A stretch of 64,000 nucleotides of DNA from an uncultured Gammaproteobacteria bacterium (GTDB lineage Bacteria; Patescibacteriota; Microgenomatia; Levybacterales; GWA1-39-11). The stretch lies in the NCBI GenBank assembly GCA_964425075.1, contig CAYRKM010000001.1, positions 266,484-330,483 on the forward strand, read 5' to 3'. Within the stretch, counting starts at the first letter, position 1; every line of letters begins with the position of its first letter. This document shows, piece after piece, positions 3,720-59,309 of the stretch. The translations under genes were made by a program, and so were the position numbers. The notes under the pieces were generated by a model. The model worked only from the letters and a program-made list of their open reading frames with translations, was not told the origin of the DNA and ran no database searches.

Positions 3720-4538
3720 TTACTGGAACGGGAGAGGGACGGACTTGTTAGTCCCTGGAAACCCCCCACAGTGGTTGGCTGCCACGTCCAACCCAACGTC
3801 GCCGTTCTTCAAGCAGAGTACCGCAAGGTACTGCTCGCCTGAATCGAGAGTTGGACTGACGAAGGTGAATCGCCACACACCATCAGAGGTGGTCCCAGAG
3901 AACAGACTTCCCGTCACCTCCTGGGCGTCGAGACCTACGTAGATCTCGGCACCGGCACTTACCATCGCCGTCGGCGAGGAAGTTATCCGAACATCCAGGG
4001 TAACAGTGTTACCCTGGCAGGGCCTCACCGAGCTGAGGCTGACGCTGTTGTCCCCGACGACACGAGGCAAAGTACTCACGGGAGAACTGACGTCATACGT
4101 TTCAGCGGGTCCCGCCACACATGGCGTCGGGGTCGCCGTGGCTGTTGCCGTCGCGGTCGCTGTGACTGTCGCCGTAGCCGTCGCGGTCGCTGTGGCCGTA
4201 GCAGTAGCTGTCGCCGTAGCCGTGGCGGTTGCCGTGGCAGTAGCCGTAGCGGTCGGGGTGGATGTAGCTGTCACGGTGACAGTTGGCGCGCTCTCGCACG
4301 CCTTAACCCACGCCAACCAGCCTCTGTAGAACGGCAACGCCTGCTTGTACCGAGGGTTTGACTCGGCAAAGCGTATCATGCCCTCCACGAATGACTTCTG
4401 TTGTCGGAGAACGTAGGAGGACGGACATCCTCCCTTTGCCTCCGCTTGCGGCGGGTTTGACACCCGCCAGACTGTGGCAAGGCTTGCCACGAGCACCACC
4501 ACCAGGACAAGTCCTGGCACAAAGGCCTTTTTCATCAA
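3720..4538 (-). CDS. Secreted hypothetical protein with long (Thr-Ala)n repeat linker, encoded in a high-GC island
   Basis: 272-aa ORF with signal-peptide-like N-terminus (MMKKAFVPGLVLVVVLVASLA). GGAGG SD 8 nt upstream. ~25x TA dipeptide repeat encoded by a GCN-GTN tandem repeat. Local GC about 60-65% versus about 35% in the flanks. Confidence 0.6.
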   Translation of the reverse strand: MMKKAFVPGLVLVVVLVASLATVWRVSNPPQAEAKGGCPSSYVLRQQKSFVEGMIRFAESNPRYKQALPFYRGWLAWVKACESAPTVTVTATSTPTATATATATATATATATATATATATATATVTATATATATATPTPCVAGPAETYDVSSPVSTLPRVVGDNSVSLSSVRPCQGNTVTLDVRITSSPTAMVSAGAEIYVGLDAQEVTGSLFSGTTSDGVWRFTFVSPTLDSGEQYLAVLCLKNGDVGLDVAANHCGGFPGTNKSVPLPFQ

Positions 4539-5547: not shown

Positions 5548-7068
5548 TTACTCAATGCTTCTTGGTCTATATTGTAAAGCCTCTAAGATATGCTGAGATA
5601 AAATTTCTTTTGAATTCTCAAGATCCGCAATGGTTCTTGAGACCTTAAGCACTTTATTAAAAGAACGAGCTGATAAATTAAGGCTTGCCATAGCCTGTTT
5701 CATGATAGTTTTTGCCTCATCTGTTATGTTGAGAAGTTCTTTTAATTCTTTTTGGTTCATTTCTGAGTTCATGATGGTTTTTTTACCCTTAAAACGTTTT
5801 TCTTGATTGCTTAATGCTTTTATTACTCTTTTCCTAATCTCCTCGGATGTTTCCGACCTTTCATTATCTGCCAACAACTTTTCTACTTTTACTGCCGGCA
5901 CGTCAATATGAATATCTATTCTATCAAGAAGTGGTCCCGAAAGCCTTTTTTGATATCGTAATATTTGGCTTGTAGAGCAAGTGCAAGTTCTTGTAGTGTC
6001 TCCATAAAATCCGCATGGACAAGGATTGGCTGCTGCAACAAGCATAAAACGTGAAGGAAAACTTACCCTCTCACGAGCCCTTGAGATACTTACTATCCCG
6101 TCCTCCAATGGTTGACGAAGCGCCTCTAGAACATACCTTGAGAATTCTGGAAATTCATCCAAAAACAATACGCCACGATGCGCAAGAGAAATTTCCCCGG
6201 GGCGAGGATTTGCACTTCCACCCACTAACCCGACATGGGAAGTTGTGTGATGAGGACTTCTAAAAGGTCTTGTTGTAATTATAGATTTTCCATTCAAAAG
6301 ACCAGAAATGCTATAAATTTTTGTAACCTCTAAAGCCTCTGCAAAAGAGAGTGGTGGAAGAATAGAGGGAATTGTTTTGGCTATTAAAGTTTTTCCTGCT
6401 CCTGGCGGACCTTTAAGTAAAATATTGTGTCCCCCTGCAACCGCCACCTCAACCGCGCGCTTTACATATGCTTGGCCTTTGATATCTGACATATCATGCT
6501 CGTATTCCTCATCTCTTAACGCATCTTTAAATTCAATTGGGGTAAGTGGCTCTATCAAGCTTTGTCCTGAAAAATGAAGGAATAGCTGTTTTAAGTTTTC
6601 TACAGGATAAAGAGTTACTCCCGCAACAACTGAAGCCTCATGTTCATTTTCTTTCGGTATAAAAACATTTTTTATTTTTTTCTCGCGGGCAAGCAAGACC
6701 ACAGGCAAGACTCCTTTTGTTTTTCTTAATTTTCCATTTAAAGATAACTCTCCCACAAAAAGACACTCGTCCGTATTAAAAACAAGTTGGCCTGATGATA
6801 AAAGAATGGAAACAGCAATTGGCACATCAAATGAGGGCCCTTCTTTAGGAAGATCCCCAGGTGCAAGATTTACAGTTACTCGTTTTGTGGGAAAGTCAGC
6901 GCCGGAATTTTTAATTGCAGAGCGTACTCTTTCTTTTGATTCCTCAACTGCCTTATCGGGAAGACCAACTATAGTAAAAGAGGGGAGACCATTTAGTATA
7001 TCTGTTTCAACCTCAACCAATACACCATCTAGACCAACGACGGTGGACGAGAGAACTCTTGAAACCAT
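5548..7068 (-). CDS. comM: YifB/ComM-family Mg-chelatase-like AAA+ ATPase
   Basis: N-terminal Lon-like domain, Walker A GPPGAGKT, Walker B LFLDE, C-terminal CxxC cluster; 506 aa. Confidence 0.8.
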   Translation of the reverse strand: MVSRVLSSTVVGLDGVLVEVETDILNGLPSFTIVGLPDKAVEESKERVRSAIKNSGADFPTKRVTVNLAPGDLPKEGPSFDVPIAVSILLSSGQLVFNTDECLFVGELSLNGKLRKTKGVLPVVLLAREKKIKNVFIPKENEHEASVVAGVTLYPVENLKQLFLHFSGQSLIEPLTPIEFKDALRDEEYEHDMSDIKGQAYVKRAVEVAVAGGHNILLKGPPGAGKTLIAKTIPSILPPLSFAEALEVTKIYSISGLLNGKSIITTRPFRSPHHTTSHVGLVGGSANPRPGEISLAHRGVLFLDEFPEFSRYVLEALRQPLEDGIVSISRARERVSFPSRFMLVAAANPCPCGFYGDTTRTCTCSTSQILRYQKRLSGPLLDRIDIHIDVPAVKVEKLLADNERSETSEEIRKRVIKALSNQEKRFKGKKTIMNSEMNQKELKELLNITDEAKTIMKQAMASLNLSARSFNKVLKVSRTIADLENSKEILSQHILEALQYRPRSIE

Positions 7069-7142
7069 ACAAATAGTATTGCCACGTTAGCGTTTTAATT
7101 GCAAATGGGTTATTTTTACCCTATGTTACAATACACTTGGCT

Positions 7143-7181
7143 ATGGACGATGTAGAAAAGAAAGCGACTTTTCGTTTTTAA
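7143..7181 (+). repeat. Upstream copy 1 of dnaG start (ATGGACGATGTAGAAAAG) forming 12-codon mini-ORF MDDVEKKATFRF*
   Basis: Exact 18-nt identity with copy 2 and 17/18 with the true dnaG start at 7227. Spacing 41 and 43 bp. Confidence 0.7.
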
Positions 7182-7183
7182 GT

Positions 7184-7222
7184 ATGGACGATGTAGAAAA
7201 GAACTCTACTTTTCTACAATAG
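7184..7222 (+). repeat. Upstream copy 2 of dnaG start forming mini-ORF MDDVEKNSTFLQ*
   Basis: See copy 1. The downstream tail is similar but diverged (ACTTTTC shared). Confidence 0.7.
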
Positions 7223-7226
7223 AAGT

Positions 7227-8990
7227 ATGGATGATGTAGAAAAGGTAAAAGCAAAACTCAATTTAGTTGATGTAATTGAAGGCTATATCCCTCTGAAGCG
7301 AGCTGGAAGAAATTTTAAAACCCCTTGTCCCTTTCACAATGAAAAAAGCCCTTCATTTGTGGTTTCTCCTGAAAGGCAAATTTGGCATTGTTTTGGATGC
7401 GCAAAAGGTGGAGACATGTTTACATTTGTTGAAGAATACGAAAGAGTGGACTTCTCTGAAGCTCTTAAAATTTTAGCGGATAAAGCTGGAATAACGCTTA
7501 CCAAAACTGTTTTTAAAACCAAGAGAGATGAGAAAAAGAATAGGATTTATGAAATAAATCACCTTACAGCTCAATTCTATCACTACCTTTTAACAGAGCA
7601 TAAATCCGGAAAAGAAGCACTTTCTTATGTAATTGAAAAGAGAGGATTAACAAAAGCTCTCCTTTCAACTTATATGCTGGGATTTGCTCCTCTTCAAAGA
7701 GACGCGCTATCTCAATATCTTATAAAGAAAAAGCACTATTCAAAAGAAGAACTTGTTGAGGCAGGTGTTTCTTTTTTTAGAAACGGGAGGGTGTTTGATT
7801 TCTTCATAAACCGGCTTATTTTCCCAATTCTTGATAGTAGGGGCAATATCATCGCCTTTTCAGGACGCGCCTTAACTGACAATGTAATGCCTAAATACAT
7901 AAACACAAAAGAAACCCCGGTATACGTAAAGGGAGACACTGTATTTGGAATATATCAGGCAAAAGAAGAGATCAAAAAGGAGGGTAAAGTAATTGTTGTT
8001 GAAGGTGAATTTGATGTTATTACTAGCTTTAAGGAAGGAATTGTAAATGTTGTTGCAGTCAAAGGAACAGCTTTAACTGAAAATCAAATTCGACTTTTGA
8101 AGCGCTTTTCCCAAAAAATAGTTTTTTGTTTTGACACAGACCCTGCAGGAACTGAAGCGCAGCGTAGATCAATTGCATTAATTGCAAAAGAGGGAATTTC
8201 TGCCTCAGTTGTACTTCCTCCACAGGGAAAAGATCCTGACGAATTATTAAGAGACAATCCTGGCCTTTTTAAAAAAGCTTTAAAAGAGGAGATAAATATC
8301 TATGATTTTATCCTGGAGTCATCCATTCAAAAAATTGATCCAAAGTCAGTAGACGGTAAAAAAGCTATCCTCTTAAGAACTTTGCCGTATTTATATGATA
8401 TTGAGAATGAAATTGTAAAAGAGCATTACCTAAAGAAACTTGCCTCACTTTTAGATTCATCCCTTGAGTCGGTTGTAAAGGAAGCTGAGAAACTCAAATC
8501 CCCTCCACCGGCACCCCAGCCAGAAAAACTAAAGATTGAGAAAAAACCACGACAATATATGATTGAAGAATATTTGTTAACACTTATTGTACAAAGCGCT
8601 AATCCAAAAGAAGCAACTATTCTTACAGCAGGAATTATTAATGGCGTAAAACTACAAACTCCTATTTTTAACCAACTATTTGAATTTTTGCGTGAATATT
8701 TCAAAACCCAGGACAAGCTAGTTTTGGAAGAGGTCAGTCAAGTGCTTCCAAAAGATCTTACGAGTGTTTTTGACCTATGTTTACTTACCCCAATTCCACA
8801 ATTTGCAACAGAAGAATTATTTACTCACCAACTTGGAAAAACGGCAAATGAGGTAAAACACATATCTATTAAGGCAAAATTGTCAGCAATCTCAAATTCC
8901 ATAAAAACTGCTGAAAAAGAAGGAAATGAGGAAAGCATAGAAGAGCTTCAAAAGGAATTTGATATGCTTGCCTCTCACTATAAGAGCTAA
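7227..8990 (+). CDS. dnaG: DNA primase
   Basis: CHC2 zinc finger CPFHNEKSPSFVVSPERQIWHCFGCAKGGD, TOPRIM region (VVEGEFDV), followed by rpoD as in the classical operon. Confidence 0.9.
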   Translation: MDDVEKVKAKLNLVDVIEGYIPLKRAGRNFKTPCPFHNEKSPSFVVSPERQIWHCFGCAKGGDMFTFVEEYERVDFSEALKILADKAGITLTKTVFKTKRDEKKNRIYEINHLTAQFYHYLLTEHKSGKEALSYVIEKRGLTKALLSTYMLGFAPLQRDALSQYLIKKKHYSKEELVEAGVSFFRNGRVFDFFINRLIFPILDSRGNIIAFSGRALTDNVMPKYINTKETPVYVKGDTVFGIYQAKEEIKKEGKVIVVEGEFDVITSFKEGIVNVVAVKGTALTENQIRLLKRFSQKIVFCFDTDPAGTEAQRRSIALIAKEGISASVVLPPQGKDPDELLRDNPGLFKKALKEEINIYDFILESSIQKIDPKSVDGKKAILLRTLPYLYDIENEIVKEHYLKKLASLLDSSLESVVKEAEKLKSPPPAPQPEKLKIEKKPRQYMIEEYLLTLIVQSANPKEATILTAGIINGVKLQTPIFNQLFEFLREYFKTQDKLVLEEVSQVLPKDLTSVFDLCLLTPIPQFATEELFTHQLGKTANEVKHISIKAKLSAISNSIKTAEKEGNEESIEELQKEFDMLASHYKS

Positions 8991-9058
8991 GTCTTTCCTC
9001 GCTTTGCTCGCACAAAACATAGAGTCACACCTTGATAAATTGACCCAAATGAGGTAAA

Positions 9059-10201
9059 ATGATTAAACGTGCGACCAATGCGGTATTTTCTGTGTGGTTT
9101 GCACCCATTATTATGCGTGCAGGTAGTGTAAAAAACGAACAAGTAGAAGAGCTTTTAAAGGAAGCGAAGAAAAAGGGCTACATCACTCAGGAAGAAATCC
9201 TACAAAAATTCCCCAAACCCGAACATTTTCTTGAAGAACTTGATTATCTTTATGATCAACTTATCAAAAAAGATATTGATATCTTTGAGACTGTCGAGCA
9301 AGAAAAAGAAACCCACAAGTCAATTGAAGACCTTGAAAAAGAATTAGAGGCACTAAATCTTATCTCTGGTGGAGCAGTATCTGATCCCGTCAGAATGTAT
9401 CTTAAAGAAATTGGAAGAATTCCTCTTTTAACCTTTGAGCAAGAAGTTGACCTTGCAAAGAGACTTGAAGCAGGGGACGAGAGCGCTCGAAAGAAATTGG
9501 TTGAAAGTAATCTTCGTCTTGTTGTGTCAATTGCTAAAAAATACGTAGGCCGTGGTATGACTCTTCTTGATCTTATCCAAGAAGGAAATCAGGGTCTTAT
9601 TCGTGCAGTTGAAAAATATGACTGGAAAAAAGGATTTAAATTCTCAACTTATGCAACTTGGTGGATAAGGCAAGCCATCACTCGTGCAATTGCTGATCAG
9701 GCAAGAACTATAAGAATTCCTGTTCATATGGTTGAAAATATCAATAGAACAATGCGTGTGCAAAGACGTCTCATGCAAGAAATTGGAAGACAACCCACCC
9801 CTGAGGAAATTGCAAAAGAACTTGAAACCGATCCTGAAAAGGTACGTGAAATTCTAAAAATCTCACAGCAACCAGCCTCACTTGATACTCCAGTAGGGGA
9901 TGAGGAAGATAGTTATCTTGGAGATTTTATTTATGACACAACCGCACCAACTCTTTTTGACACAGCTTCTCGCGGGCTTTTGAAAGAACAATTAAATACA
10001 GTTCTCTCAACCCTATCTGATAGAGAAAGAAGAGTTCTTGAGGAAAGATTTGGACTTAAAGATGGTAAACCAAAGACGCTTGAGGAAGTGGGACGTATGT
10101 TTGCAGTAACCCGTGAACGTATCCGCCAAATTGAAGCAAAGGCTTTAAGAAAATTGAGACATCCATCCCGTGGAAATAAACTCCGCGACTACTTAGAATA
10201 G
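9059..10201 (+). CDS. rpoD: RNA polymerase primary sigma factor (sigma-70 family). True start may be an internal Met (e.g. MRAGS)
   Basis: Region 2 [29 protein letters not shown] and region 4 [29 protein letters not shown]. Confidence 0.9.
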
Positions 10202-10323: not shown

Positions 10324-11064
10324 ATGGGTTATTTCGGGAAAATTGAACTTAAAAATGAAGCTATCGCACTCCACCAAAAAGGCCTTTCCTATAACGAAAT
10401 TCTGAAAACAATTCCTGTTTCCAAAGACACATTAAGTCGGTGGTGCAGAGAAATTGAACTAACAAATGATCAAAAAGCAAGATTAATGACAAATAAAGAG
10501 AACGGCCAGAGAAAGGGCTCGCTTGTAGCAGCTGGTAATAAAAGGAGACAAAGAATAGAAAAAATTAAGAACATAAATATCTTGGCTAGAAAGGACATAG
10601 GTAAAATTTCAAAGAGAGATAATTTCATTTTTGGCCTAGCTCTTTATGCCGGAGAGGGAGGCAAAACCGATGGAAAAGGTACCTTCACCAACTCGAATCC
10701 CTTTTTTATTAAATTTATGTGTAAATGGTTAATGGAATATTGTGATTTAAATGCTAATAATCTAAAGGGGGCACTATGGATTCATGAAGAAAACGATGAA
10801 AAAGAAGCAAAAATATTTTGGTCAAATTTAACTGAAATTCCTATTATAAATTTCCATAAATCATACGTCGTTAAAAACAAAAATGGAGTTTATTATCGGA
10901 AAAATGTTCATCCATTTGGAGTTTTTTCTATACGATTTTACAATAGTGATTTACAAAGGAAAATAATGGGCTGGATTTCAGCTTTCTTAGATGATAAAAT
11001 AACTTCCACTCAAGAAATTGAGTCGATCCGCGATAGCTCAATGGTAGAGCAGGAAACTGTATAA
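10324..11064 (+). CDS. Hypothetical protein with N-terminal HTH and a single degenerate LAGLIDADG-like motif (possible free-standing homing-endonuclease relative)
   Basis: HTH-like LSYNEILKTIPVSKDTLSRWCRE. Motif FIFGLALYAGEGG resembles LAGLIDADG with a terminal acidic residue. Family assignment by eye only. Confidence 0.3.
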   Translation: MGYFGKIELKNEAIALHQKGLSYNEILKTIPVSKDTLSRWCREIELTNDQKARLMTNKENGQRKGSLVAAGNKRRQRIEKIKNINILARKDIGKISKRDNFIFGLALYAGEGGKTDGKGTFTNSNPFFIKFMCKWLMEYCDLNANNLKGALWIHEENDEKEAKIFWSNLTEIPIINFHKSYVVKNKNGVYYRKNVHPFGVFSIRFYNSDLQRKIMGWISAFLDDKITSTQEIESIRDSSMVEQETV

Positions 11065-11204
11065 CAATGCAGCCTCCGAGGGAAACATCGGAGTGAATAA
11101 CTGGGCTAATTCGGGGAAACCCTGAGACAATTGAAGGGCAATCCCGAGCTAAATTCCGCCAAATGGCGAGATAAATGTGTAGAGACTATATACCCAGGAC
11201 CTAA

Positions 11205-11305
11205 TTCGCCAAGATGGTGAAATGGTCATAAGATAGTCCAAGCCTTTTAGTAATAAAAGGGTCCTTGTAATTTCAAGGTTCTAGGTTCGAATCCTAGTCG
11301 CGGAG
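11205..11305 (+). tRNA. tRNA-like element with canonical T-arm and 3' acceptor strand. Full cloverleaf not resolved (possible intron-containing, aberrant or remnant tRNA)
   Basis: CTAGG-TTCGAAT-CCTAG T-arm at 11281-11297, followed by 7-nt acceptor strand TCGCGGA plus discriminator G. Upstream TTCGCCA pairs 6/7. A D-arm-like ATGG-TGAAATGG-TCAT with a GG pair is present. Total length about 101 nt is too long for a standard tRNA and the anticodon arm is non-canonical. Confidence 0.35.
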
Positions 11306-11345
11306 CAAATTGACACCAAGGTCTAAAAAGACTATAAATTAGTTA

Positions 11346-22278: not shown

Positions 22279-22425
22279 ATGGCAAAAAGACCAACGGGAG
22301 TGGGCAAAAGAGGAAGAGTCCATTCACCAAAAACAAAAAAGAGGCTTTCTATAAAAGCAGCAATGCTTAATGCGCTTACTTTAAAACGTGGCTACAAGGG
22401 CAAAAGAAAACCAAAGAGTCAATAA
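22279..22425 (+). CDS. Unannotated 48-aa highly basic small ORF (MAKRPTGVGKRGRVHSPKTKKRLSIKAAMLNALTLKRGYKGKRKPKSQ)
   Basis: ATG-to-TAA ORF not in the supplied track (under 60 aa). Lys/Arg rich like small ribosomal or nucleic-acid-binding proteins. No family recognised. Confidence 0.25.
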   Translation: MAKRPTGVGKRGRVHSPKTKKRLSIKAAMLNALTLKRGYKGKRKPKSQ

Positions 22426-22630
22426 TTCTGTAAATATTTCTTCAGGGGTTTCCAATAATAATCTTCCCATCCTTTTTCAATTTCTTTTTCAAATTCTTCT
22501 GGTACGTTTTCATGTGTAAATTCAAGTTCCGTTCCGTCTTTAACAGAATTTTCTGTGGTAAAATCACTATATGACACAGAAAATAAGAACCACTTCTGAA
22601 CCTTGTTTTTTGTTTTGACGGTAAATCAAT

Positions 22631-23083
22631 ATGACACAAAAAATTACACCATTTTTGTGGTTTGACAAAGGAAAGGCGAGTGAAGCCGCAAAGTTTTATG
22701 CCGCGGTTTTTAAAGATTCAAAAATTCTGACTCCAGAGAAATATGAAGGGACTCCTTCCGGAGAAATTGAAATAATCACGATTGAACTATTCGGCCAACA
22801 ATTTACCCTTATGGGAGCAGGCCCCGAATTTAAATTCAATGAAGCAGTATCTTTTATCATTGACTGCGATGGACAGGAAGAGGTTGACTATTATTGGGAC
22901 GCTCTTATTGCAGATGGCGGGGAAGAGTCTCAATGTGGCTGGCTTAAGGATAAGTTTGGACTATCGTGGCAAGTGCTCCCAAAACAACTAAACGAAGCGT
23001 TGGCAGACCCCAAAAGGTCAAAATTTACATTGGAAGCAATGCTTAGGATGAAAAAAATTATAATTGCAGATCTTGAAAAATAA
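22631..23083 (+). CDS. VOC-family protein, PhnB-like (3-demethylubiquinone-9 3-methyltransferase-like fold)
   Basis: N-terminal ITPFLWFDKGKASEAAKFYAAVF typical of the PhnB/COG2764 family. Confidence 0.55.
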   Translation: MTQKITPFLWFDKGKASEAAKFYAAVFKDSKILTPEKYEGTPSGEIEIITIELFGQQFTLMGAGPEFKFNEAVSFIIDCDGQEEVDYYWDALIADGGEESQCGWLKDKFGLSWQVLPKQLNEALADPKRSKFTLEAMLRMKKIIIADLEK

Positions 23084-45106: not shown

Positions 45107-45173
45107 CTTACTTTTCGTCAGGAAAGCAAGGGGAGATATTAATCACTCAACTTACTTTTCGTCAGGAAAGCAA
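45107..45173. repeat. Two 23-bp perfect direct repeats CTTACTTTTCGTCAGGAAAGCAA (45107-45129, 45151-45173; about 32 bp with flanking similarity) in the promoter region of the pilin operon
   Basis: Seen directly. 44-bp spacing. Lies between the pilin-fusion gene start (45030) and the winged-helix regulator gene. Confidence 0.7.
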
Positions 45174-45182
45174 AATGAGCGA

Positions 45183-46571
45183 TTAGTCGCTTAATTTATA
45201 TCCTTTTCCTTTTATCGTGTGAATAAAGTGAGGATTGGTAGGGTCTTGTTCTATTTTCTTTCTTAGTCTATAAAAAATCTGATCAAGAGCTTGATCTGTG
45301 ACTCCTTCTTGGGTTTTGTTATCACTCCAAATAGCATTAATTATCTCGTCTTTTGAACAAAGTTTTTCTTTATTTGCAATTAAAAACTTAAGCAGTTTGA
45401 ATTCTGAGGGTGAAAGCTTGTCCGATATTGAGGCATCTCCAACTCGTATATCATTTTTCTCACTGTCATAAGTAAGTTTATCTTTACTTGAAACCGATGT
45501 TGTCTTGATAAATTCTGAAAGTAGGGGAATGGATGGGGCATTATTTTTTATAAGTTCACTATTTGTTAAAAAGGAAGAAGCATTTGTTATCGGTGAATTT
45601 TTTAGTTCAATTTGCTCTGAAGGGAGAAGGGCATTCCAAATTTCAGATAATGCCCCCTGAATGGTTGGTCTTTTCAATAAAAAGTCACGAAGGCTTGAGG
45701 GTGTTTCGTCTTCGCTAATAAGCGCCTCATAAGAGAGCTTGGTGAGTTTTGCATGTCCTCCGGTAAGATTAAGAATTTCCTTTTTTGTATTTTCAGGAAT
45801 TGTTTTATGAGCCGCCTTTTCAATATATGAAAGCCTAAAGTCCATCCCAATAGGGTCAAAAAGAGAGACAAATACGTTGTTCCCCGCGACTATATCATGA
45901 AAGTCGGAAAGCAATTCTGGCTCACATACATCCTCAAGTGGTCGAGTAAGCGCAAATACGCTCCCAAATCTATATTTGGCATGATTTCGAAGGACTCTGA
46001 GGTTAGTAAAAAATTGAGAGTCAATAGTTGGAAGTAAAGAGTCGAATCTATCAAATAGCAAATGGACTGTAAGTTTCTTTTCTATTGATAGGTAATCAAG
46101 GGCTTGTTTTAATGATTGAAATAAAACTAACTCATCCTGCATGCTCACCCCATTTTTCAGAAATTCGTTTACTTTTTTTGATTCATCAATCAGGCGTCTT
46201 TCTCCAAGAGAGAAGGCAAGAGACAGTAGGATAAATTTAGTTATGTCAAAAAGTGGGCGATTTTTAACCTCGGTTGAGTCAATATATACAAAATGCATTA
46301 TTTTTTCGTATTCTCCAAAATGTTTTGCTCTCACATTTAGGTTGTAGGCTAGTAGACGCAGGATATTGCTTTTTCCAACCCCTGGAAGTCCAACGACCTG
46401 AGAAGAAAGACCCTTTCCTATAAAAGGAGCAAGAGCACTAAGCTCCTTTTCGCGCGTTCCTTCAGGATACAAGCTTTCAAAATATTTAAGGGGTTCAAAT
46501 TGCATGGTATCTCCAATATACCACAGTAAAAGGGAGCTGTGAGGTGGTTGTAAGCTAAATATCAAGTTCAA
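45183..46571 (-). CDS. Putative transcriptional regulator: N-terminal P-loop NTPase domain plus C-terminal OmpR/PhoB-type winged-helix DNA-binding domain
   Basis: Walker A GLPGVGKSNILRLL. C-terminal ...KLLKFLIANKEKLCSKDEIINAIWSDNK...ALDQIFYRLRKKIE...IHTIKGKGYKL typical trans_reg_C. Confidence 0.6.
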   Translation of the reverse strand: MNLIFSLQPPHSSLLLWYIGDTMQFEPLKYFESLYPEGTREKELSALAPFIGKGLSSQVVGLPGVGKSNILRLLAYNLNVRAKHFGEYEKIMHFVYIDSTEVKNRPLFDITKFILLSLAFSLGERRLIDESKKVNEFLKNGVSMQDELVLFQSLKQALDYLSIEKKLTVHLLFDRFDSLLPTIDSQFFTNLRVLRNHAKYRFGSVFALTRPLEDVCEPELLSDFHDIVAGNNVFVSLFDPIGMDFRLSYIEKAAHKTIPENTKKEILNLTGGHAKLTKLSYEALISEDETPSSLRDFLLKRPTIQGALSEIWNALLPSEQIELKNSPITNASSFLTNSELIKNNAPSIPLLSEFIKTTSVSSKDKLTYDSEKNDIRVGDASISDKLSPSEFKLLKFLIANKEKLCSKDEIINAIWSDNKTQEGVTDQALDQIFYRLRKKIEQDPTNPHFIHTIKGKGYKLSD

Positions 46572-49696: not shown

Positions 49697-51727
49697 CTAA
49701 CTACTATTATTTCCATCTCTCAAATCCTCAACTGCATCTTGAGCTCCAAGAGCTGCATCTCTTGCCTCATTAGCTGCTACTTCTGTTCGTTGCGCTGCTC
49801 TTCCTGCTTCTGGATTTGCATTGTCTGCGTCATCCGATGGCCCCGTTGCAACCTCTGAACCAGTTGCACCTCCTCCTGAGGGTGCTGGTTCTCTTCCTGC
49901 GGGTGCTGCGCCTGCAGGGTTATTTCCACTGTCTTTTCCCTTATTTCTTCTCAACGGATTTTTTATCCAGGGAATGTGTTCATATCCACCTTTTCCATCG
50001 TTCTTTTCAGGATCCCAACGTTTTGACTTAAAGCTGCCCCCAAATACAGCAGCTGTAAGTCTGCCGCCCCTTTCCTCAGCAATTCTTGTTAACAACTTTG
50101 GATTACCCATTGCGTCCTCACCCCAAACCTTGTTCCAACCACCTTTGATAGGTGAAGTTATGAGTTTTTGACCTGAGCCCAATGCTCTTCCGGCAGCTCC
50201 TGCAATCTTAAGGTCAGGAGCTTTTAGAGCTTGTTTTGTTATATTTACAGCCTCAGGCATGATAAGTATCATTCCAAGTCCAAGTATTGATGCAATAGCC
50301 CCAACTCCATTGTCTCCAGGATCTCCTACAAGAGGGGGGATAAATGTGGCCTGGCCTGGAACCACGTTGTCCTGAACTGCTTTTCCAATTAGGAATAAAA
50401 CAATAACAACAGGAAAGGCTGCAAGATTTGCTGTAACGCTTCTAAGCCAGGGACCAACGCCTCCACCGGCTCCAGGAATAACTCCTTTCAATATCCAAAA
50501 TGGGGCAAAAATAACATCAAGAATGATAAACACATAGGCTTTAATAAGCATGAACCAAACCCGAAGAAGAGCAGAAAGAATTGCGATTGCTATTATAAGG
50601 TAGGCAATAATTAGAGCAATAAGGCCGAAGACTTTGGTCCCAAAAGCATAACCAGCCGCCCCCATTATTGGTCCGAGAATCCAATTTGTGCTAAAACCAG
50701 CTATTTCAGGCGCCATATTTGCAGCAGTCATTCCAGCGATAATACCAGTTACGATTCTTGCTAGCTGTTCTCCAATTCCACCTTCAAAGAGTGATCCTAA
50801 AACGTTTGCTATTCCTTTTGCGGCCGGAGTCGCAATATTATTTATCCCGCCCAATCCCCCGACGGCATTAACTGGATTGGTGTCAATATTTGTAATAGTT
50901 GTAAGACCCTGACTATGGAAGAGTTGGATAACAAGATAAATTGAAACATACATCATGTCAATCAAAAATCCGACGATAGCATAGGAAAACGTGATAAGAA
51001 TGAGGGCAATAACAATTTTTGGAATTTGGTTTTGGATACTCATAACAGTTCTAGCGTCAATATTTATACGAAACATTATTCCCAAACCAAGCAGGATAAA
51101 AACTAAAACAAACAATAAATAAACGAGATTTCTAAAAGTTTCCCAAATTTTAAGAACCGGAGTAAGGCCTTTAAATCCTATTCCTTGCCCAAATCCTGTT
51201 TGTGAAGCTTTTGCAGCATCAAGACATGCTCCCATCGATTCAGGAGGAGTGCCTAGGCATTGCTCGGTTGGGGTTGCGGCATATGAATTACGTGTTATCC
51301 CAAAATTTGATGCGACGTATTTTCCATATTCAACTGAGGAAACAGGTATATTATAGGTAGACCCAATAAGATTTCCGGAAAGAGTTAATAGTCCTCCCGT
51401 GCCATTTTCTACATATCCTACCTTTCTTGTTGTTGGGTCAATTCCAAGACATTTACCATTGGTTGAAAGAGGATCGTATCCTGTTAAAAAGCAAGATGCT
51501 GTTGCTAGGATGTTTATAAATGTAGTTTGAGTATAGGTATTAATATTTTGAGGAACATTTGGATTTGTGTTTAGAGGCAATGACTGAGGGGAGGCAATGT
51601 TTGAAGTTTGAGCTGAAACATTTCCGGTAAAAATAAAAACACCTAAAAAGAAAAAGACAGATAGAAGTGCGATCTTTGCTTTTTGAGAGAATACTTTAGT
51701 TTTCCATTTAGAGCAGTTCATTTTCAT
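49697..51727 (-). CDS. VirB6/TrbL-like polytopic membrane protein with Gly/Ala/Pro-rich C-terminal tail
   Basis: Signal peptide, about 250-aa periplasmic region, then more than 8 TM helices, then GGSFKSKRWD...GAAPAGREPAPSGGGATG tail, an architecture typical of TrbL/VirB6. Assignment by architecture only. Confidence 0.45.
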   Translation of the reverse strand: MKMNCSKWKTKVFSQKAKIALLSVFFFLGVFIFTGNVSAQTSNIASPQSLPLNTNPNVPQNINTYTQTTFINILATASCFLTGYDPLSTNGKCLGIDPTTRKVGYVENGTGGLLTLSGNLIGSTYNIPVSSVEYGKYVASNFGITRNSYAATPTEQCLGTPPESMGACLDAAKASQTGFGQGIGFKGLTPVLKIWETFRNLVYLLFVLVFILLGLGIMFRINIDARTVMSIQNQIPKIVIALILITFSYAIVGFLIDMMYVSIYLVIQLFHSQGLTTITNIDTNPVNAVGGLGGINNIATPAAKGIANVLGSLFEGGIGEQLARIVTGIIAGMTAANMAPEIAGFSTNWILGPIMGAAGYAFGTKVFGLIALIIAYLIIAIAILSALLRVWFMLIKAYVFIILDVIFAPFWILKGVIPGAGGGVGPWLRSVTANLAAFPVVIVLFLIGKAVQDNVVPGQATFIPPLVGDPGDNGVGAIASILGLGMILIMPEAVNITKQALKAPDLKIAGAAGRALGSGQKLITSPIKGGWNKVWGEDAMGNPKLLTRIAEERGGRLTAAVFGGSFKSKRWDPEKNDGKGGYEHIPWIKNPLRRNKGKDSGNNPAGAAPAGREPAPSGGGATGSEVATGPSDDADNANPEAGRAAQRTEVAANEARDAALGAQDAVEDLRDGNNSS

Positions 51728-51796: not shown

Positions 51797-51835
51797 CCTT
51801 CGCTGAGCTCAGTCCGGGTCCTTCGCTGAGCTCAG
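51797..51835. repeat. Two copies of CCTTCGCTGAGCTCAG (each containing the 10-bp palindrome CTGAGCTCAG) with 23-bp period
   Basis: Seen directly in the divergent region between the VirB6-like gene and 51923 gene. GC-rich relative to surroundings. Confidence 0.6.
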
Positions 51836-52519: not shown

Positions 52520-52778
52520 AAAAGTTATTTAGGGTAAGCATAATTTTCTTTCCCCACATATTCAATATTACAGTATTGAAGTAGTTTGTTATACGCTTTT
52601 TAGCAGTTCTTTTCCAAATTATAGTCTGTGTTTATTTTTGAGGCTAGGGAAAAAGTTGCGATGATTTGATACATTTATTTATAGTTGACACTGCAGATAT
52701 AGTGGTTTACATTAGTTCATGACACTAGATATTGTGTTTTTTGAGGTTCTTTAACAATACGCTTGAAATATAAAATTT

Positions 52779-53228
52779 ATGCATTGTCCATATTGTAAAC
52801 ACAACAATACTGAAGTAGTTGAAACCCGCGTTAGTGAGGATGGGAATAATATTCGAAGGAGAAGGCTTTGTGGTAATTGTTCAAAGAGATTTACTACTTA
52901 CGAAAGGGTTGAAAACCTTACCCTCTTGGTAATGAAGAAAGATGGAAGAAGCGAGAGATTCAGTAGAGAAAAACTTAAGGGTGGAATTCTAAAGGCAGTT
53001 GAGAAAACCACCGTAACCCTCGAGCAGATTGAGAGAATAGTTGATGATATAGAGCGCGAATTATTGGGTTCTGATAGCGTAGAGGTGGAAAGCAAAAAAA
53101 TTGGGAGACTTGTTGCTTCCAATTTAAAAAGACTTGATAAGATAGCATATATTAGATTTGCAAGCGTATTTAAAAACTTCGTAGACATAGAAGAGTTTGA
53201 AAAGGAAGTGAAAAAGTTAATAAGATAA
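52779..53228 (+). CDS. nrdR: Transcriptional repressor NrdR
   Basis: MHCPYCKHNNTEVVETR...CGNC zinc ribbon plus ATP-cone; 149 aa. Confidence 0.9.
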   Translation: MHCPYCKHNNTEVVETRVSEDGNNIRRRRLCGNCSKRFTTYERVENLTLLVMKKDGRSERFSREKLKGGILKAVEKTTVTLEQIERIVDDIERELLGSDSVEVESKKIGRLVASNLKRLDKIAYIRFASVFKNFVDIEEFEKEVKKLIR

Positions 53229-53239
53229 AAAAACATTTT

Positions 53240-53287
53240 ATGGCACTAACTGGAATTAGAGAAAAAGTTTTCATTTCCGAAAATTAA
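53240..53287 (+). repeat. Upstream copy 1 of nrdJ start (ATGGCACTAACTGGAATTAGAGAAAAAGTTTT) forming mini-ORF MALTGIREKVFISEN*
   Basis: 31/33 nt identical to the true nrdJ start at 53440. Followed by a diverged tail and stop. Confidence 0.7.
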
Positions 53288-53345
53288 TTTGAGGAAACAA
53301 AAAGGAAGTATAGAAAGTTATTAATGGAGGTTAAATTTTAAAAAT

Positions 53346-53393
53346 ATGACATTAACTGGAATTAGAGAAAAAGTTTTTATTTTCGAGAAGTAA
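53346..53393 (+). repeat. Upstream copy 2 of nrdJ start forming mini-ORF MTLTGIREKVFIFEK*
   Basis: 33-nt perfect identity with nrdJ start. GGAGG located 18 nt upstream. Confidence 0.7.
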
Positions 53394-53439
53394 CTCGAGA
53401 AAACAAAATTTTTATTCGAAGAAAAAAACAAACTACTTT

Positions 53440-55851
53440 ATGACATTAACTGGAATTAGAGAAAAAGTTTTTATAGACCGTTATTCATTGAAAGATGCGG
53501 ATGGTACTCCTCTTGAAACAGAACCCCAACAGATGTGGAGAAGGGTAGCTAAGGGAATAGCTGGACAAGAAGTAAAAGCCAAACGTGAAGAATGGGAGGA
53601 AAAATTTTATAAAGTTTTAGAAGACTTCAAATTTGTTCCTGGGGGAAGAATTCTCTCAGGGGCCGGAACAGGATATCAAGTAACTTACTTTAATTGCTTT
53701 GTAATCCCATCGCCCAAGGATTCTAGAGAGGGAATTCTCGATAGTCTTAAACAACTCGTCGAGATTCAAAGTCGCTCTGGGGGTGTGGGACTAAATCTGT
53801 CCTCCCTTCGCCCCCGCGGGGCACGTGTTAAAAAAGTAAATGGTACTTCTTCAGGTCCCGTAACCTGGGCAGGGCTTTTTTCATACGCAACCCATGACGT
53901 TGTACAGCAGGGTGGAACCAGAAGAGGGGCAACAATGCTTATGCTTTGGGATTGGCATCCTGATATAGAGGAGTTCATTACTGTAAAAGAGGACCTTTCC
54001 AAAATAAATGGCGCAAATCTATCAGTAAATGTTTCAGATGCTTTTATGAGCGCTGTTAAAAATGATTCTGATTGGGAATTGGTTTATCCAGATCTTGACG
54101 ATCCTAAATATGATGAATTTTGGGATGGAGATATTGTGGGCTGGAAGGCAATGGGGGGAGCCGTAAAAGTATACAAAACAGTAAAGGCTCGTTATCTTTG
54201 GGATCTTATTTGTACAGCTGCTTGGAAAAGTGCTGAGCCAGGACTTCACTTTTTGGAGAGAAGCAACAAACAATCAAACACTTGGTATTTCGAAAAGCTT
54301 ATTGCAACCAACCCCTGTGGAGAGCAGCCTCTTGGTGGATGGGCAGTATGTAATCTTGGAGCAATGAATTTGTCTCAATATGTTAAGGATGAGAAATTTG
54401 ATTATGATAGCTTTTCAGATGACGTAAAAGTTGCAATGAGACTTTTAGATAACGTCATTGATGATACGTATTATTTCTTTAAAGAAAACGAAAAGTGCGC
54501 AAAAGAAATACGAAGAACTGGACTTGGAATAATGGGTTTGGCAGATGCGCTTATAAAAATGAAACTCCGTTACGGATCTGAGGAAGCAATGCCAACGATT
54601 GAGAAAATCTTTCAAGTATTAAGAGATAGTGCGTATGATGCGTCTTCTGATATTGCAAAAGAAAAAGGTTCATTTCCTAAATTTGATAAAGAAAAATATC
54701 TTCAGGGACATCATATAAAAGCGCTTCCCAAAAAACTTCGAGATAAAATAGCTGCGCAGGGCATTAGAAATGCAGTACTTCTTACAATTGCTCCAACCGG
54801 AACAACATCATTATTGTCAGGTGTTTCTTCAGGAGTAGAGCCAGTTTATGAATTTACTTTTGTGAGACGAGATAGAACAGGAGAGCACATAATGTACCAT
54901 CCCCTATATGAGGAGTGGAAAGAGCAGAATCCAGATGCGGAAAAACCTAATTATTTTGTAAGTGCAAATGACTTGACCCCGCTAGAGCACGTAAGCGTTC
55001 AGGCTGTAGCTCAGAGATATATTGATTCATCTATTTCAAAAACAGTTAATGCTCCAAATGCGCATACTATTGATGATGTGAAAACCCTCTATATGTTAGC
55101 TTACGAAATGGGGCTGAAGGGAATAACCTACATGAGAGATGGCTCTCGTGAAGGAGTTTTATCAAGGATTGAGGATAAGAAAAAAGAAGAAGAGGTAGAG
55201 AGGGCAGCTCGAGAAATGCCAATAAGAAAACGCCCAGTCGTGCTTCACGGGGTAACTCACAAGACTGTAACACCTTTGGGGCACACATTTATAACGATTA
55301 ATAACGATGAAGAAGAAAAACCATTTGAGATATTTATAAATGCTGGAAAATCGGGTAGTGATGTTATGGCAATGGCTGAGGCATTAGGAAGGATTATGTC
55401 TATGGTTTTGCGTATCCAGTCACCAGTTGAGCCGCGAGAAAGAGTGCGGGATATGATAGATCAACTTTCAGGAATTGGTGGAGGTCGCTCGGTTGGATTT
55501 GGACCAAATAGGGTGCGCTCACTTCCTGATGCTGTTGCAAAGGTTTTGGCAGAGCATTTTGCTTTTAGAGTAAATGGACATGTTGCGGATAAAAAAATTG
55601 AGGCAACTCTTGCAGATGGAGGGAAAAAGGAATCTTTGGAAGTCGTAGCGCAGGAAGCAAAGCCAGTTGAAGCAGCTAAAGAGGTATTTGTAGCAGAGGA
55701 ACCAAGCGAGCCATCTCTTCCGATGGTAGCGGTTTTGCAAGCTCCAAAAAGTGCAGCTAATGCTGATCTTTGTCCCGAATGTGGATCTGCTTCATTCGTT
55801 CACGAAGAAGGATGTGCTAAGTGCTATGCTTGCGGACATGCCGAATGTTAA
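53440..55851 (+). CDS. nrdJ: Class II (adenosylcobalamin-dependent) ribonucleoside-triphosphate/diphosphate reductase
   Basis: Active-site NPCGEQPL, TGTTS, C-terminal zinc ribbon CPECGS...CAKCYACGH; 803 aa; downstream of nrdR. Confidence 0.85.
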   Translation: MTLTGIREKVFIDRYSLKDADGTPLETEPQQMWRRVAKGIAGQEVKAKREEWEEKFYKVLEDFKFVPGGRILSGAGTGYQVTYFNCFVIPSPKDSREGILDSLKQLVEIQSRSGGVGLNLSSLRPRGARVKKVNGTSSGPVTWAGLFSYATHDVVQQGGTRRGATMLMLWDWHPDIEEFITVKEDLSKINGANLSVNVSDAFMSAVKNDSDWELVYPDLDDPKYDEFWDGDIVGWKAMGGAVKVYKTVKARYLWDLICTAAWKSAEPGLHFLERSNKQSNTWYFEKLIATNPCGEQPLGGWAVCNLGAMNLSQYVKDEKFDYDSFSDDVKVAMRLLDNVIDDTYYFFKENEKCAKEIRRTGLGIMGLADALIKMKLRYGSEEAMPTIEKIFQVLRDSAYDASSDIAKEKGSFPKFDKEKYLQGHHIKALPKKLRDKIAAQGIRNAVLLTIAPTGTTSLLSGVSSGVEPVYEFTFVRRDRTGEHIMYHPLYEEWKEQNPDAEKPNYFVSANDLTPLEHVSVQAVAQRYIDSSISKTVNAPNAHTIDDVKTLYMLAYEMGLKGITYMRDGSREGVLSRIEDKKKEEEVERAAREMPIRKRPVVLHGVTHKTVTPLGHTFITINNDEEEKPFEIFINAGKSGSDVMAMAEALGRIMSMVLRIQSPVEPRERVRDMIDQLSGIGGGRSVGFGPNRVRSLPDAVAKVLAEHFAFRVNGHVADKKIEATLADGGKKESLEVVAQEAKPVEAAKEVFVAEEPSEPSLPMVAVLQAPKSAANADLCPECGSASFVHEEGCAKCYACGHAEC

Positions 55852-58944: not shown

Positions 58945-58950
58945 AATTTG

Positions 58951-59309
58951 TGGAGATGGGGGGTTTTGAGCCCCCGTCCAAAAATCATCCATAAAAACAT
59001 CTACAAGCGTAGTTCCCTCTAATTCTTGCCATATCTAACCGTTGGAACAAAGAAAATATGACAAAGGCCTAATACGAAACGGGCTGGCCAGCTCCGTTAA
59101 GTTTTTCTAGCAGGTTAATGCCTGTATCTTTGTGCTAGAAGCAAGTTGATACAAACAGGTCTTAGGTATTAAGCAAACGCAAAGTTTGGTTTAAAACCAA
59201 GTCCGCTAAATTGTGATTTAGCATGTATTTTTGAACCTCTTTTACGACTTTGGTTCATTGTCGGCTTGCAGTTTTTAAGGTACAATTCTTGTCGATGCAG
59301 TGCATCCCC
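58951..59309 (-). ncRNA. ssrA: tmRNA (SsrA), standard one-piece form
   Basis: Minus-strand 5' GGGGATGCACTGCATCGACAAG... 3' ...GGACGGGGGCTCAAAACCCCCCATCTCCA. Acceptor stem carries the G3:U70 wobble (AlaRS identity) and discriminator A. T-arm GGGGG/CCCCC. Putative tag ORF GCT AAA TCA ... GCG TTT GCT TAA (AKSQFSGLGFKPNFAFA). Adjacent to smpB. Confidence 0.75.

Follow-up and report, generated by a model that had tools for sequence, protein, structure and literature searches.

Tandem copies of the dnaG promoter and start in a Levybacteria genome: candidate decoy starts in the leader of a primase gene

Why does the start of a DNA primase gene stand three times in tandem? The question is raised by dnaG in a window of 64 kb (64,000 nucleotides, nt) from assembly GCA_964425075.1 (contig CAYRKM010000001.1, positions 266,484 to 330,483 of the forward strand), in which the initial annotation had noticed two extra copies of the gene's start directly upstream of it, each opening a mini open reading frame (mini-ORF). 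The DnaG relatives are Candidatus Levybacteria (Microgenomates, candidate phyla radiation, CPR). Here we report the structure and evolution of this repeat, a description that we hold with high confidence, and weigh whether the upstream copies, which look maintained in sequence comparisons, serve as decoy starts. All coordinates are window positions.

The repeat is as originally described. The 18-mer ATGGAYGATGTAGAAAAG occurs at 7143–7160, 7184–7201 and 7227–7244, always on the + strand and nowhere else in the window, and three matches, even with up to 3 mismatches permitted, were reached by none of 100 shuffled sequences. Tandem Repeats Finder returned a period-41 array of 2.5 copies with 82% matches (7142–7244), and the start-to-start spacings given by the repeat finder are 41 and 43 nt. 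Copies 1 and 2 have 21 exact bases in common (7142–7162 and 7183–7203), and beyond this core the copies diverge from one another. Both upstream copies begin with ATG and encode the two 12-codon peptides first proposed, MDDVEKKATFRF and MDDVEKNSTFLQ (coordinates in Table 1), whose reading frames share the motif ACTTTTC in their tails (7167–7173 and 7208–7214). Their stops, which had been placed 1–4 nt before the next ATG, lie 2 nt (TAA 7179–7181) and 4 nt (TAG 7220–7222) from it, which is the geometry of termination-reinitiation, with a same-strand stop a few nt before a downstream start. The third copy is the true start of dnaG: the Pfam Zn_ribbon_DnaG alignment begins at residue 3 of the 587-aa ORF, which carries the full primase domain set, and about 160 DnaG homologues start at equivalent MDD or MDQ codons. 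The stretch 7040–7290 is 100% identical in two contigs that were separately assembled from runs SRR14271372 and SRR14271365 and encode the same DnaG, and the copy number is three in all of these assemblies. Because these contigs agree and the copies are divergent beyond the core, repeat collapse or expansion during assembly is excluded and the dnaG repeat is real.

What was repeated is more than a translation start. Almost no gene of the window has a Shine-Dalgarno motif; a TAnAAT box a few nt before the ATG is found instead. The motif TAnA[AT]T lies exactly 6 nt 5' of the start at 7 of the 52 gene starts, compared with 0.8% of all ATGs, and N6 is the modal spacing. The genes of the window thus look mostly leaderless by their motifs, and in leaderless-type genes of this kind the promoter and the first codons are one compact module. 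The same signals are present in the repeat, as TGtTACAAT-N10-ATG1 (P1) and TACAAT-N6-ATG3 (P3, at the modal spacing), and a TGnTAcAAT box 8–10 nt before the ATG is common among the dnaG loci of relatives. Copy 2 has no −10 box, and none of the three ATGs is preceded by a GGAG-type motif. Judged by these boxes, the repeated dnaG unit is a promoter-plus-start module; the initial annotation, which had treated it as a translation start only, missed the −10 box as well as a 10-nt inverted repeat described below.

The history of the locus can be read from its relatives. The closest ones that could be retrieved (L168 and L169, with DnaG 81% and 79% identical) have a single dnaG start and no repeat, and in both a block orthologous to P1 (...ataccctgTGtTACAATac...) directly abuts that start, which argues that P1 is the ancestral dnaG promoter, now fronting decoy 1, and that the triplication postdates the split. 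Units 1 and 3, each taken as upstream segment plus core, both contain TACAATA and agree at 15 of 25 positions of their upstream segments. Identity between the cores is 18/18 and 17/18 positions, compared with 10–15 of 25 in the inter-core segments, which also contain an indel (Fisher p 2e-5 to 0.011). Uniform identity would be expected of a fresh duplication and uniform decay of an old neutral one, and the dnaG mosaic is neither. Its simplest origin is two rounds of tandem duplication of a module of about 42 bp (roughly −24 to +18) that comprises the −10 box, the ATG and the first six codons. Two other derivations were rejected. Slippage between the TGATGTA microhomologies at 7232 and 7268 predicts an in-frame repeat of 36 nt, in contrast to the observed units of 41 and 43 nt, and the homology of the inter-core segments to dnaG codons 7–14 is weak (13–14 of 25), the phase that includes the promoter being at least as good (15 of 25, with TACAATA kept). 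A decoy 41 nt upstream of dnaG is also found in L085 (DnaG 52% identical), where it encodes MNDIEKISLFN and a stop; it again sits on the ancestral promoter, which argues that it arose independently.

The inverted repeat adds a second element. The anti-start CTTTTCTACA is a perfect 10-nt inverted copy of TGTAGAAAAG, which is found in every core. It can pair with decoy 2 (7192–7201:7209–7218; −10.3 kcal/mol, z −5.6) or with codons 3–6 of dnaG (7209–7218:7235–7244; −10.3 kcal/mol, z −4.2), in the latter case with AUG 7227 in the loop; the two hairpins are mutually exclusive, and an equally good fold was obtained in 0 of 200 shuffles. Exclusive hairpins of which one sequesters the initiation region of the main gene, as in ermC- and cat-type leaders, are therefore present at dnaG. 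When the 45 nt on either side of each start were compared, 10-nt complementarity was found in only two of 52 genes, dnaG and the PF06983 duplication treated below; the shuffled control gave about 0.3% per gene, and a rough chance estimate for the anti-start is about 1.4e-4. A local hairpin between GAAAAG and the weak anti-start CTTTTC+GTTTTT is slight (−4.2 kcal/mol, z −0.7), and among the leader structures that were folded only the local 10-bp hairpins of dnaG are significant. A scan of 6900–7500 gave no intrinsic terminator, and neither MDDVEKKATFRF nor MDDVEKNSTFLQ contains a regulatory codon run or a repeated regulatory amino acid; attenuation of the trp or his type does not fit, as both the terminator and the codon run are missing. 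No known arrest motif was recognised in the dnaG mini-ORFs. With Rfam at gathering thresholds, only a transfer-messenger RNA (tmRNA) and a group I intron were detected in the window, and a permissive search of 7000–7400 returned only chance-level eukaryotic matches (E above 1), so that a known RNA family or riboswitch in the dnaG leader was rejected as well.

In evolutionary terms, the case of nrdJ is the more instructive. The initial annotation had stated that the architecture recurs at this gene. Three start copies are indeed present (53240, 53346 and the real start at 53440; scan of all ORF starts of the window), but 58 and 46 nt, instead of 1–4 nt, separate their mini-ORF stops from the next ATG. 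The first spacer holds a degenerate copy of the 3' end of nrdR, which indicates that the array began as a tandem duplication across the tightly coupled nrdR–nrdJ junction. Decoys of nrdJ occur in at least four Levybacteria lineages: two are found in the window (53185–53503) and in L164 (650–890; NrdJ 93% identical), one in L174 (2894–3036; listed at 84%) and in L167 (2036–2183; 87%), and none in L165 (91%), L170 (84%) and L175 (listed at 83%), the last having 1 nt between nrdR and nrdJ. Between the window and L164 the two units are equal in length (106 and 94 nt), free of indels and 83% and 89% identical, with matches at 57/70 and 54/58 positions of the unit tails. Taken over both units, 172/200 positions match, compared with 59.8% at the third codon positions of identical NrdJ residues (binomial p 9e-5, 1e-8 and 5e-16 for the nrdJ comparisons, the last for 172/200); by this measure, the nrdJ leader appears to be under purifying selection. 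Substitutions are common to all copies of one genome and differ between genomes, as with GAA/CAA (E/Q) and ACT/ACA between the window and L164 and with AGA to CGA in both copies of L174, which shows concerted evolution of the copies. The L167 decoy and the real start are unlike only at six consecutive third codon positions, and of all 22 positions at which decoys depart from real starts, 17 are third codon positions (p 3e-5 against one third; p 0.003 against 0.46, the value of a model in which the real gene changes only synonymously). The decoy cores thus appear to be under constraint, be it direct or by way of conversion with the real gene. The stop of the decoy-2 mini-ORF sits in the loop of a conserved hairpin, TTTTCGAG-AAGTAA-CTCGAGAA. 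A look-up of other contigs returned none with the exact NrdJ protein.

Two NrdR-box-like palindromes are located upstream of nrdR, 32 bp apart (52722–52737 and 52690–52705); ACACTAGATATTGTGT has 1 mismatch to the NrdR consensus, and ACTGCAGATATAGTGG, read by eye, is more degenerate. Autoregulation of the nrdR–nrdJ operon by NrdR looks conventional from these boxes.

The search for duplicated starts elsewhere, which the initial annotation had called for, yielded a third case in the window that it had missed (22571 and 22631, within 22548–22645), upstream of a PF06983 gene. The decoy stop lies 12 nt before the real ATG, and the locus is identical in a separately assembled contig (L163). The two units contain different, internally matched inverted repeats, ATTTTCTGTG/CACAGAAAAT and TTTTTTGT/ACAAAAAA, a pair that looks compensatory. 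At PF06983 as at nrdJ the real start is without a −10 box; since only a decoy has a −10-like box, the real genes must be read as downstream cistrons. Among about 1 Mb of related loci, comM/yifB of another Levybacterium (L002, − strand, about 2357–2388) has a decoy start 31 nt upstream, TATACT-N7-ATGGTAAGCAAAGTT..., which encodes MVSKVCHKLVYG and a stop that overlaps codons 2–3 of the real gene; within the decoy lies a 6-bp hairpin (AGTTTG-cca-CAAACT), and both differences in its first five codons are synonymous. A further candidate (L059) was a false positive, an internal Lys-rich stretch of dnaG. The window thus has 3 cases in 52 genes, compared with roughly 2 in about 900 genes of the other loci (Fisher p 0.0014, the gene count being rough). 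A control search on the downstream side of starts gave 0 start-copy matches, and the window has few local direct repeats away from gene starts.

A 52-aa ORF on the − strand (22419–22577, …GWEDYYWKPLKKYLQNY) abuts and overlaps the PF06983 decoy; it seems to resemble SRPBCC/AHSA1-type proteins in their C-terminal third and may be what a rearrangement at this junction left of a gene.

How might such a leader act at dnaG? As we picture it, the gene would be made from two mRNAs, a short leaderless one from P3 and a longer one from P1 that opens with the two 12-codon mini-cistrons. Transcripts from P1 would begin 2–4 nt before AUG-1, and ribosomes would enter at the 5'-terminal AUG, as they do on leaderless mRNAs, and translate decoy 1 before reinitiating at AUG-2 and then at AUG-3 across the gaps of 2 and 4 nt. 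By default, the anti-start would pair with decoy 2 and leave the dnaG initiation region open; when decoy 2 is otherwise engaged, it would pair with codons 3–6 of dnaG, with the AUG in the loop, and close the start. Transcripts from P3 would bypass both the decoys and the switch. The arrangement would then be a translational throttle or coupler for primase and not a passive scar. We consider the chances evenly divided that the decoys are translated and modulate DnaG synthesis, and this functional reading draws mainly on the sister case of nrdJ, where decoys persist across species under constraint. The leader-peptide and termination-reinitiation architecture put forward in the initial annotation can be kept in part: it agrees with the geometry at dnaG, with the recurrence of duplicated starts and with the conservation of the nrdJ leader with its signs of selection, and it is limited by the promoter that dnaG has of its own and by the gaps of 46–58 nt at nrdJ. 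Termination-reinitiation at dnaG is plausible from the spacing of stops and starts, but as dnaG has its own TACAAT-N6 box inside mini-ORF 2, its dependence on reinitiation would be at most partial. Only tentatively do we suggest the wider generalisation that self-mimic decoy starts may be an undescribed class of cis-regulatory leaders in Levybacteria, and perhaps in other leaderless bacteria that lack Shine-Dalgarno sites. Such leaders would arise from tandem copies of a gene's own promoter-start module, and their decoys would be translated as 5'-terminal mini-cistrons, with selection and concerted evolution preserving their likeness to the real start. Together with an anti-start able to pair with either decoy or real start, the decoys would set the ribosome supply to replication genes such as dnaG and nrdJ.

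Several observations weigh against a regulatory role of the dnaG decoys. Neither the closest relatives found nor, with one exception, the other dnaG loci examined (about 160 loci) have the triplication; it is young and lineage-specific, and a function of its own is not inferable from conservation. The canonical −10 box of P3 belongs to dnaG itself, and the long mRNA with its decoys may be irrelevant to primase output. Stops beside the next ATG are partly expected, AT-rich promoter remnants being rich in stop codons, and gene conversion alone could keep the cores alike. The distances between stops and ATGs at nrdJ fit tight reinitiation poorly, so that the dnaG geometry is not general. As regards structure, the anti-start of the L085 copy is feeble, the nrdJ decoy-1 units give a weak consensus fold (−4.3 kcal/mol), and the whole-leader folds of dnaG, nrdJ and L085 remain within the range of shuffled sequences (z −0.96, +0.81 and +1.02).

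These points lead to the rival that survives best, a neutral or nearly neutral scar. Slippage would have duplicated the promoter-start segment twice, dnaG would be expressed only from P3, and the upstream copies would be decaying junk whose cores are alike through short-tract conversion or recent origin. The youth of the triplication agrees with this, as do the canonical form of P3, the −10 box already lost from copy 2 and the gene conversion that clearly occurs between the nrdJ copies; in L165, moreover, the nrdJ array has seemingly collapsed to one copy, and a compact genome tolerates only tandem duplications that straddle gene boundaries, so that survivorship alone would enrich duplicated starts. 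A scar does not readily account for the sharp mosaic of perfect cores and diverged spacers, for a perfect 10-nt inversion of core sequence overlapping the new −10 box, or for two mini-ORFs that have stayed intact, each running from an ATG to a stop close ahead of the next one. Nor does it account for nrdJ decoy units that stay far above synonymous-site identity without indels across species, for the third-codon-position bias of the decoy differences, or for the excess of cases in the window over the other loci. We regard the scar as a possible but doubtful explanation.

Alternatively, the repeat could be a DNA operator array, in which the cores and the palindrome TGTAGAAAAG-N7-CTTTTCTACA-N16-TGTAGAAAAG bind a dimeric regulator that occludes the −10 box and the transcription start of dnaG. 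The palindrome does overlap P3, ATTTTCTGTG-N17-CACAGAAAAT similarly brackets the −10 box and start of the PF06983 decoy, and TTTTCT...AGAAAA is common to both. The cores, in contrast, are wholly different at dnaG, nrdJ, PF06983 and comM, so that one factor cannot explain all of them, and the dnaG promoters of the relatives have no such palindrome. The motif TTTTCT-N20-25-AGAAAA has 3 matches in the window against 0.53 expected, but two of them are the dnaG and PF06983 loci under study, and a shared operator motif was rejected for want of independent support. Known boxes were likewise rejected as the repeated element: in the dnaG leader (7100–7260) there is no NrdR box (acaCwAtATaTwGtgt; an NrdR operator being tandem 16-bp boxes about 31–32 bp apart in a promoter), good boxes occurring only upstream of nrdR, and no DnaA box (TTATCCACA-like, with up to 1 mismatch), TGTAGAAAA matching at only 7/9 positions. 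An operator array is improbable.

A contingency locus would use the repeat in another way: identical cores would recombine, and copy number would vary in the population, resetting the distance from the strong promoter P1 to dnaG and tuning primase expression. The nrdJ arrays with 0, 1 or 2 decoys are of the kind expected, and so is the single nrdJ start of L165, whose likeness to the decoy-1 starts of related genomes would follow from a deletion between copies. That variation is seen between species and not within a population, however; three copies of identical sequence are present in the window and the two other assemblies, and the exact repeat is only 18–21 nt long. This explanation is improbable as well. 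The chance of an assembly or scaffolding artefact is close to nil, as nothing beyond a general suspicion of short tandem repeats in metagenome-assembled genomes speaks for it, and it was rejected, as far as assemblies can tell, because identical contigs from separate assemblies of two other runs cover dnaG and contig L163 the PF06983 locus, because the 21-nt core is shorter than typical assembler k-mers and its copies are diverged outside, and because orthologous multi-copy nrdJ architecture occurs in other species and other samples.

Table 1. Elements of the dnaG leader and the other start decoys of the window, in window coordinates.
Feature	Position	Strand	Remarks
P1, extended −10 promoter TGtTACAAT	7124–7132	+	10 nt 5' of ATG-1; from sequence and relatives
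Decoy mini-ORF 1, MDDVEKKATFRF	7143–7181	+	Core 7143–7160; TAA 2 nt before ATG-2
Weak anti-start CTTTTC, then GTTTTT	7168–7173	+	Complement of GAAAAG in the cores
Decoy mini-ORF 2, MDDVEKNSTFLQ	7184–7222	+	Core 7184–7201; TAG 4 nt before dnaG ATG; without −10 box
Anti-start CTTTTCTACA	7209–7218	+	Perfect 10-nt complement of TGTAGAAAAG in every core
P3, −10 box TACAAT	7215–7220	+	Exactly 6 nt 5' of dnaG ATG; overlaps anti-start and TAG of mini-ORF 2
dnaG, DNA primase, 587 aa	7227–8990	+	Pfam Zn_ribbon_DnaG, DNAG_N, Toprim, DnaB_bind; core copy 3 at 7227–7244
Start decoy of PF06983 gene	22556–22630	+	TGgTAAAAT-N6-ATG (22571); 15-codon decoy 22571–22618; real ATG 22631
Two nrdJ start decoys	53240–53439	+	Units 53240–53345 and 53346–53439; mini-ORFs 53240–53287 and 53346–53393; between nrdR and nrdJ start 53440

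Other features of the window include further repeats and RNA genes. The 14-nt sequence CAAATGAGGTAAAA occurs in the 3' region of dnaG (8845–8858) and right before the ATG of rpoD (9046–9059), whose first base it overlaps; the pair may be due to chance or to a short duplication involving the initiation region of rpoD. Inside ORF 3720–4538 (−), a GC-rich tandem array (GCCGTA-like; periods 6, 18, 24 and 42; 4131–4268) forms a low-complexity coding repeat. Two copies of a 23-nt direct repeat, 44 nt apart (45107–45129 and 45151–45173; TTGCTTTCCTGACGAAAAGTAAG on the minus strand), lie between the next gene and the end of ORF 45183–46571 (−), which we take from its C-terminal sequence to be an OmpR-type response regulator; they may be binding sites of a response regulator. 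The 16-nt direct repeat CCTTCGCTGAGCTCAG (51797–51812 and 51820–51835, 23 nt apart) is located in the divergent intergenic region upstream of gene 49697–51727 (−). A tRNA gene at 11027–11306 is interrupted in the anticodon loop by a group I intron of about 207 nt (Rfam Intron_gpI 11050–11260, 63 bits); ARAGORN with introns enabled gave tRNA-Asn(GTT), and another splice choice gives tRNA-Arg(CCT). The tmRNA gene (58948–59309, −) encodes the tag peptide AKSQFSGLGFKPNFAFA.

The control of individual-gene translation is poorly understood where there are few or no Shine-Dalgarno sites, and it is essentially unexplored in the CPR. If the decoys are functional, they would represent a simple evolutionary route by which duplication of a leaderless promoter-start module leads to a leader-ORF control device, and they would explain oddly long "intergenic" gaps before essential genes in tiny genomes. 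Duplicated starts are also of practical concern because gene callers can pick the wrong start and assemblers using short k-mers may break contigs, which may be the reason why NrdJ was missing from the contig look-up. No paper on leaderless architecture in the CPR or Levybacteria came up in a literature search that combined these subjects.

Among known systems, translational attenuation of ermC and cat combines a leader ORF with mutually exclusive hairpins, and one of these hides the main gene's initiation region. The dnaG locus likewise has leader ORFs and mutually exclusive hairpins; unlike ermC and cat, it has no Shine-Dalgarno site to hide and no known stalling peptide or inducer, and its competing arm is a literal copy of the gene start. 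In the synthetic bicistronic design, reportedly introduced by Mutalik and co-workers in 2013, a short leader cistron is placed so that it terminates where the gene of interest begins. The dnaG case resembles it in that a short upstream cistron would let the ribosome unfold the next initiation region and hand over, whereas the engineered design depends on Shine-Dalgarno sites and the dnaG case is natural, without such sites and derived from the gene itself.

Leaderless expression with a −10 box adjacent to the ORF is described for Deinococcus-Thermus, mycobacteria and archaea (PMC12340547, PMC3160421); the same geometry, with a TAnAAT box 6–10 nt before the ATG and presumably no 5' untranslated region, predominates in the window, but the modules in these accounts are single, unlike the tandem dnaG module. 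Mycobacterial leaderless short ORFs are reported to be the first cistrons of polycistronic mRNAs (Shell et al. 2015, PMC4633059) and include polycysteine ORFs that act as attenuators (bioRxiv 10.1101/834739). Shared with them are the 5'-terminal AUG, the very short ORF before the gene, the lack of a Shine-Dalgarno site and the proposed control of the downstream cistron. The differences are that the decoys of dnaG and nrdJ copy the first 6–12 codons of the gene itself through module duplication, occur in up to two tandem copies, evolve in concert at nrdJ and have no codon run of the poly-Cys kind. Translational coupling by termination-reinitiation (Huber et al. 2019, PMC6728339; review PMC12548453) corresponds to the dnaG stops 2 and 4 nt from the next AUG and to a downstream start without a Shine-Dalgarno site; it joins two real genes, whereas the partners at dnaG are self-derived 12-codon decoys, chained twice, and dnaG has its own promoter. 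A literature search found no leader ORF that copies the start of its own gene, owes its origin to duplication of the module and shows concerted evolution with this start. In its working, the dnaG arrangement would thus come closest to the mycobacterial leaderless short upstream ORFs combined with termination-reinitiation coupling, with a hairpin logic reminiscent of ermC.

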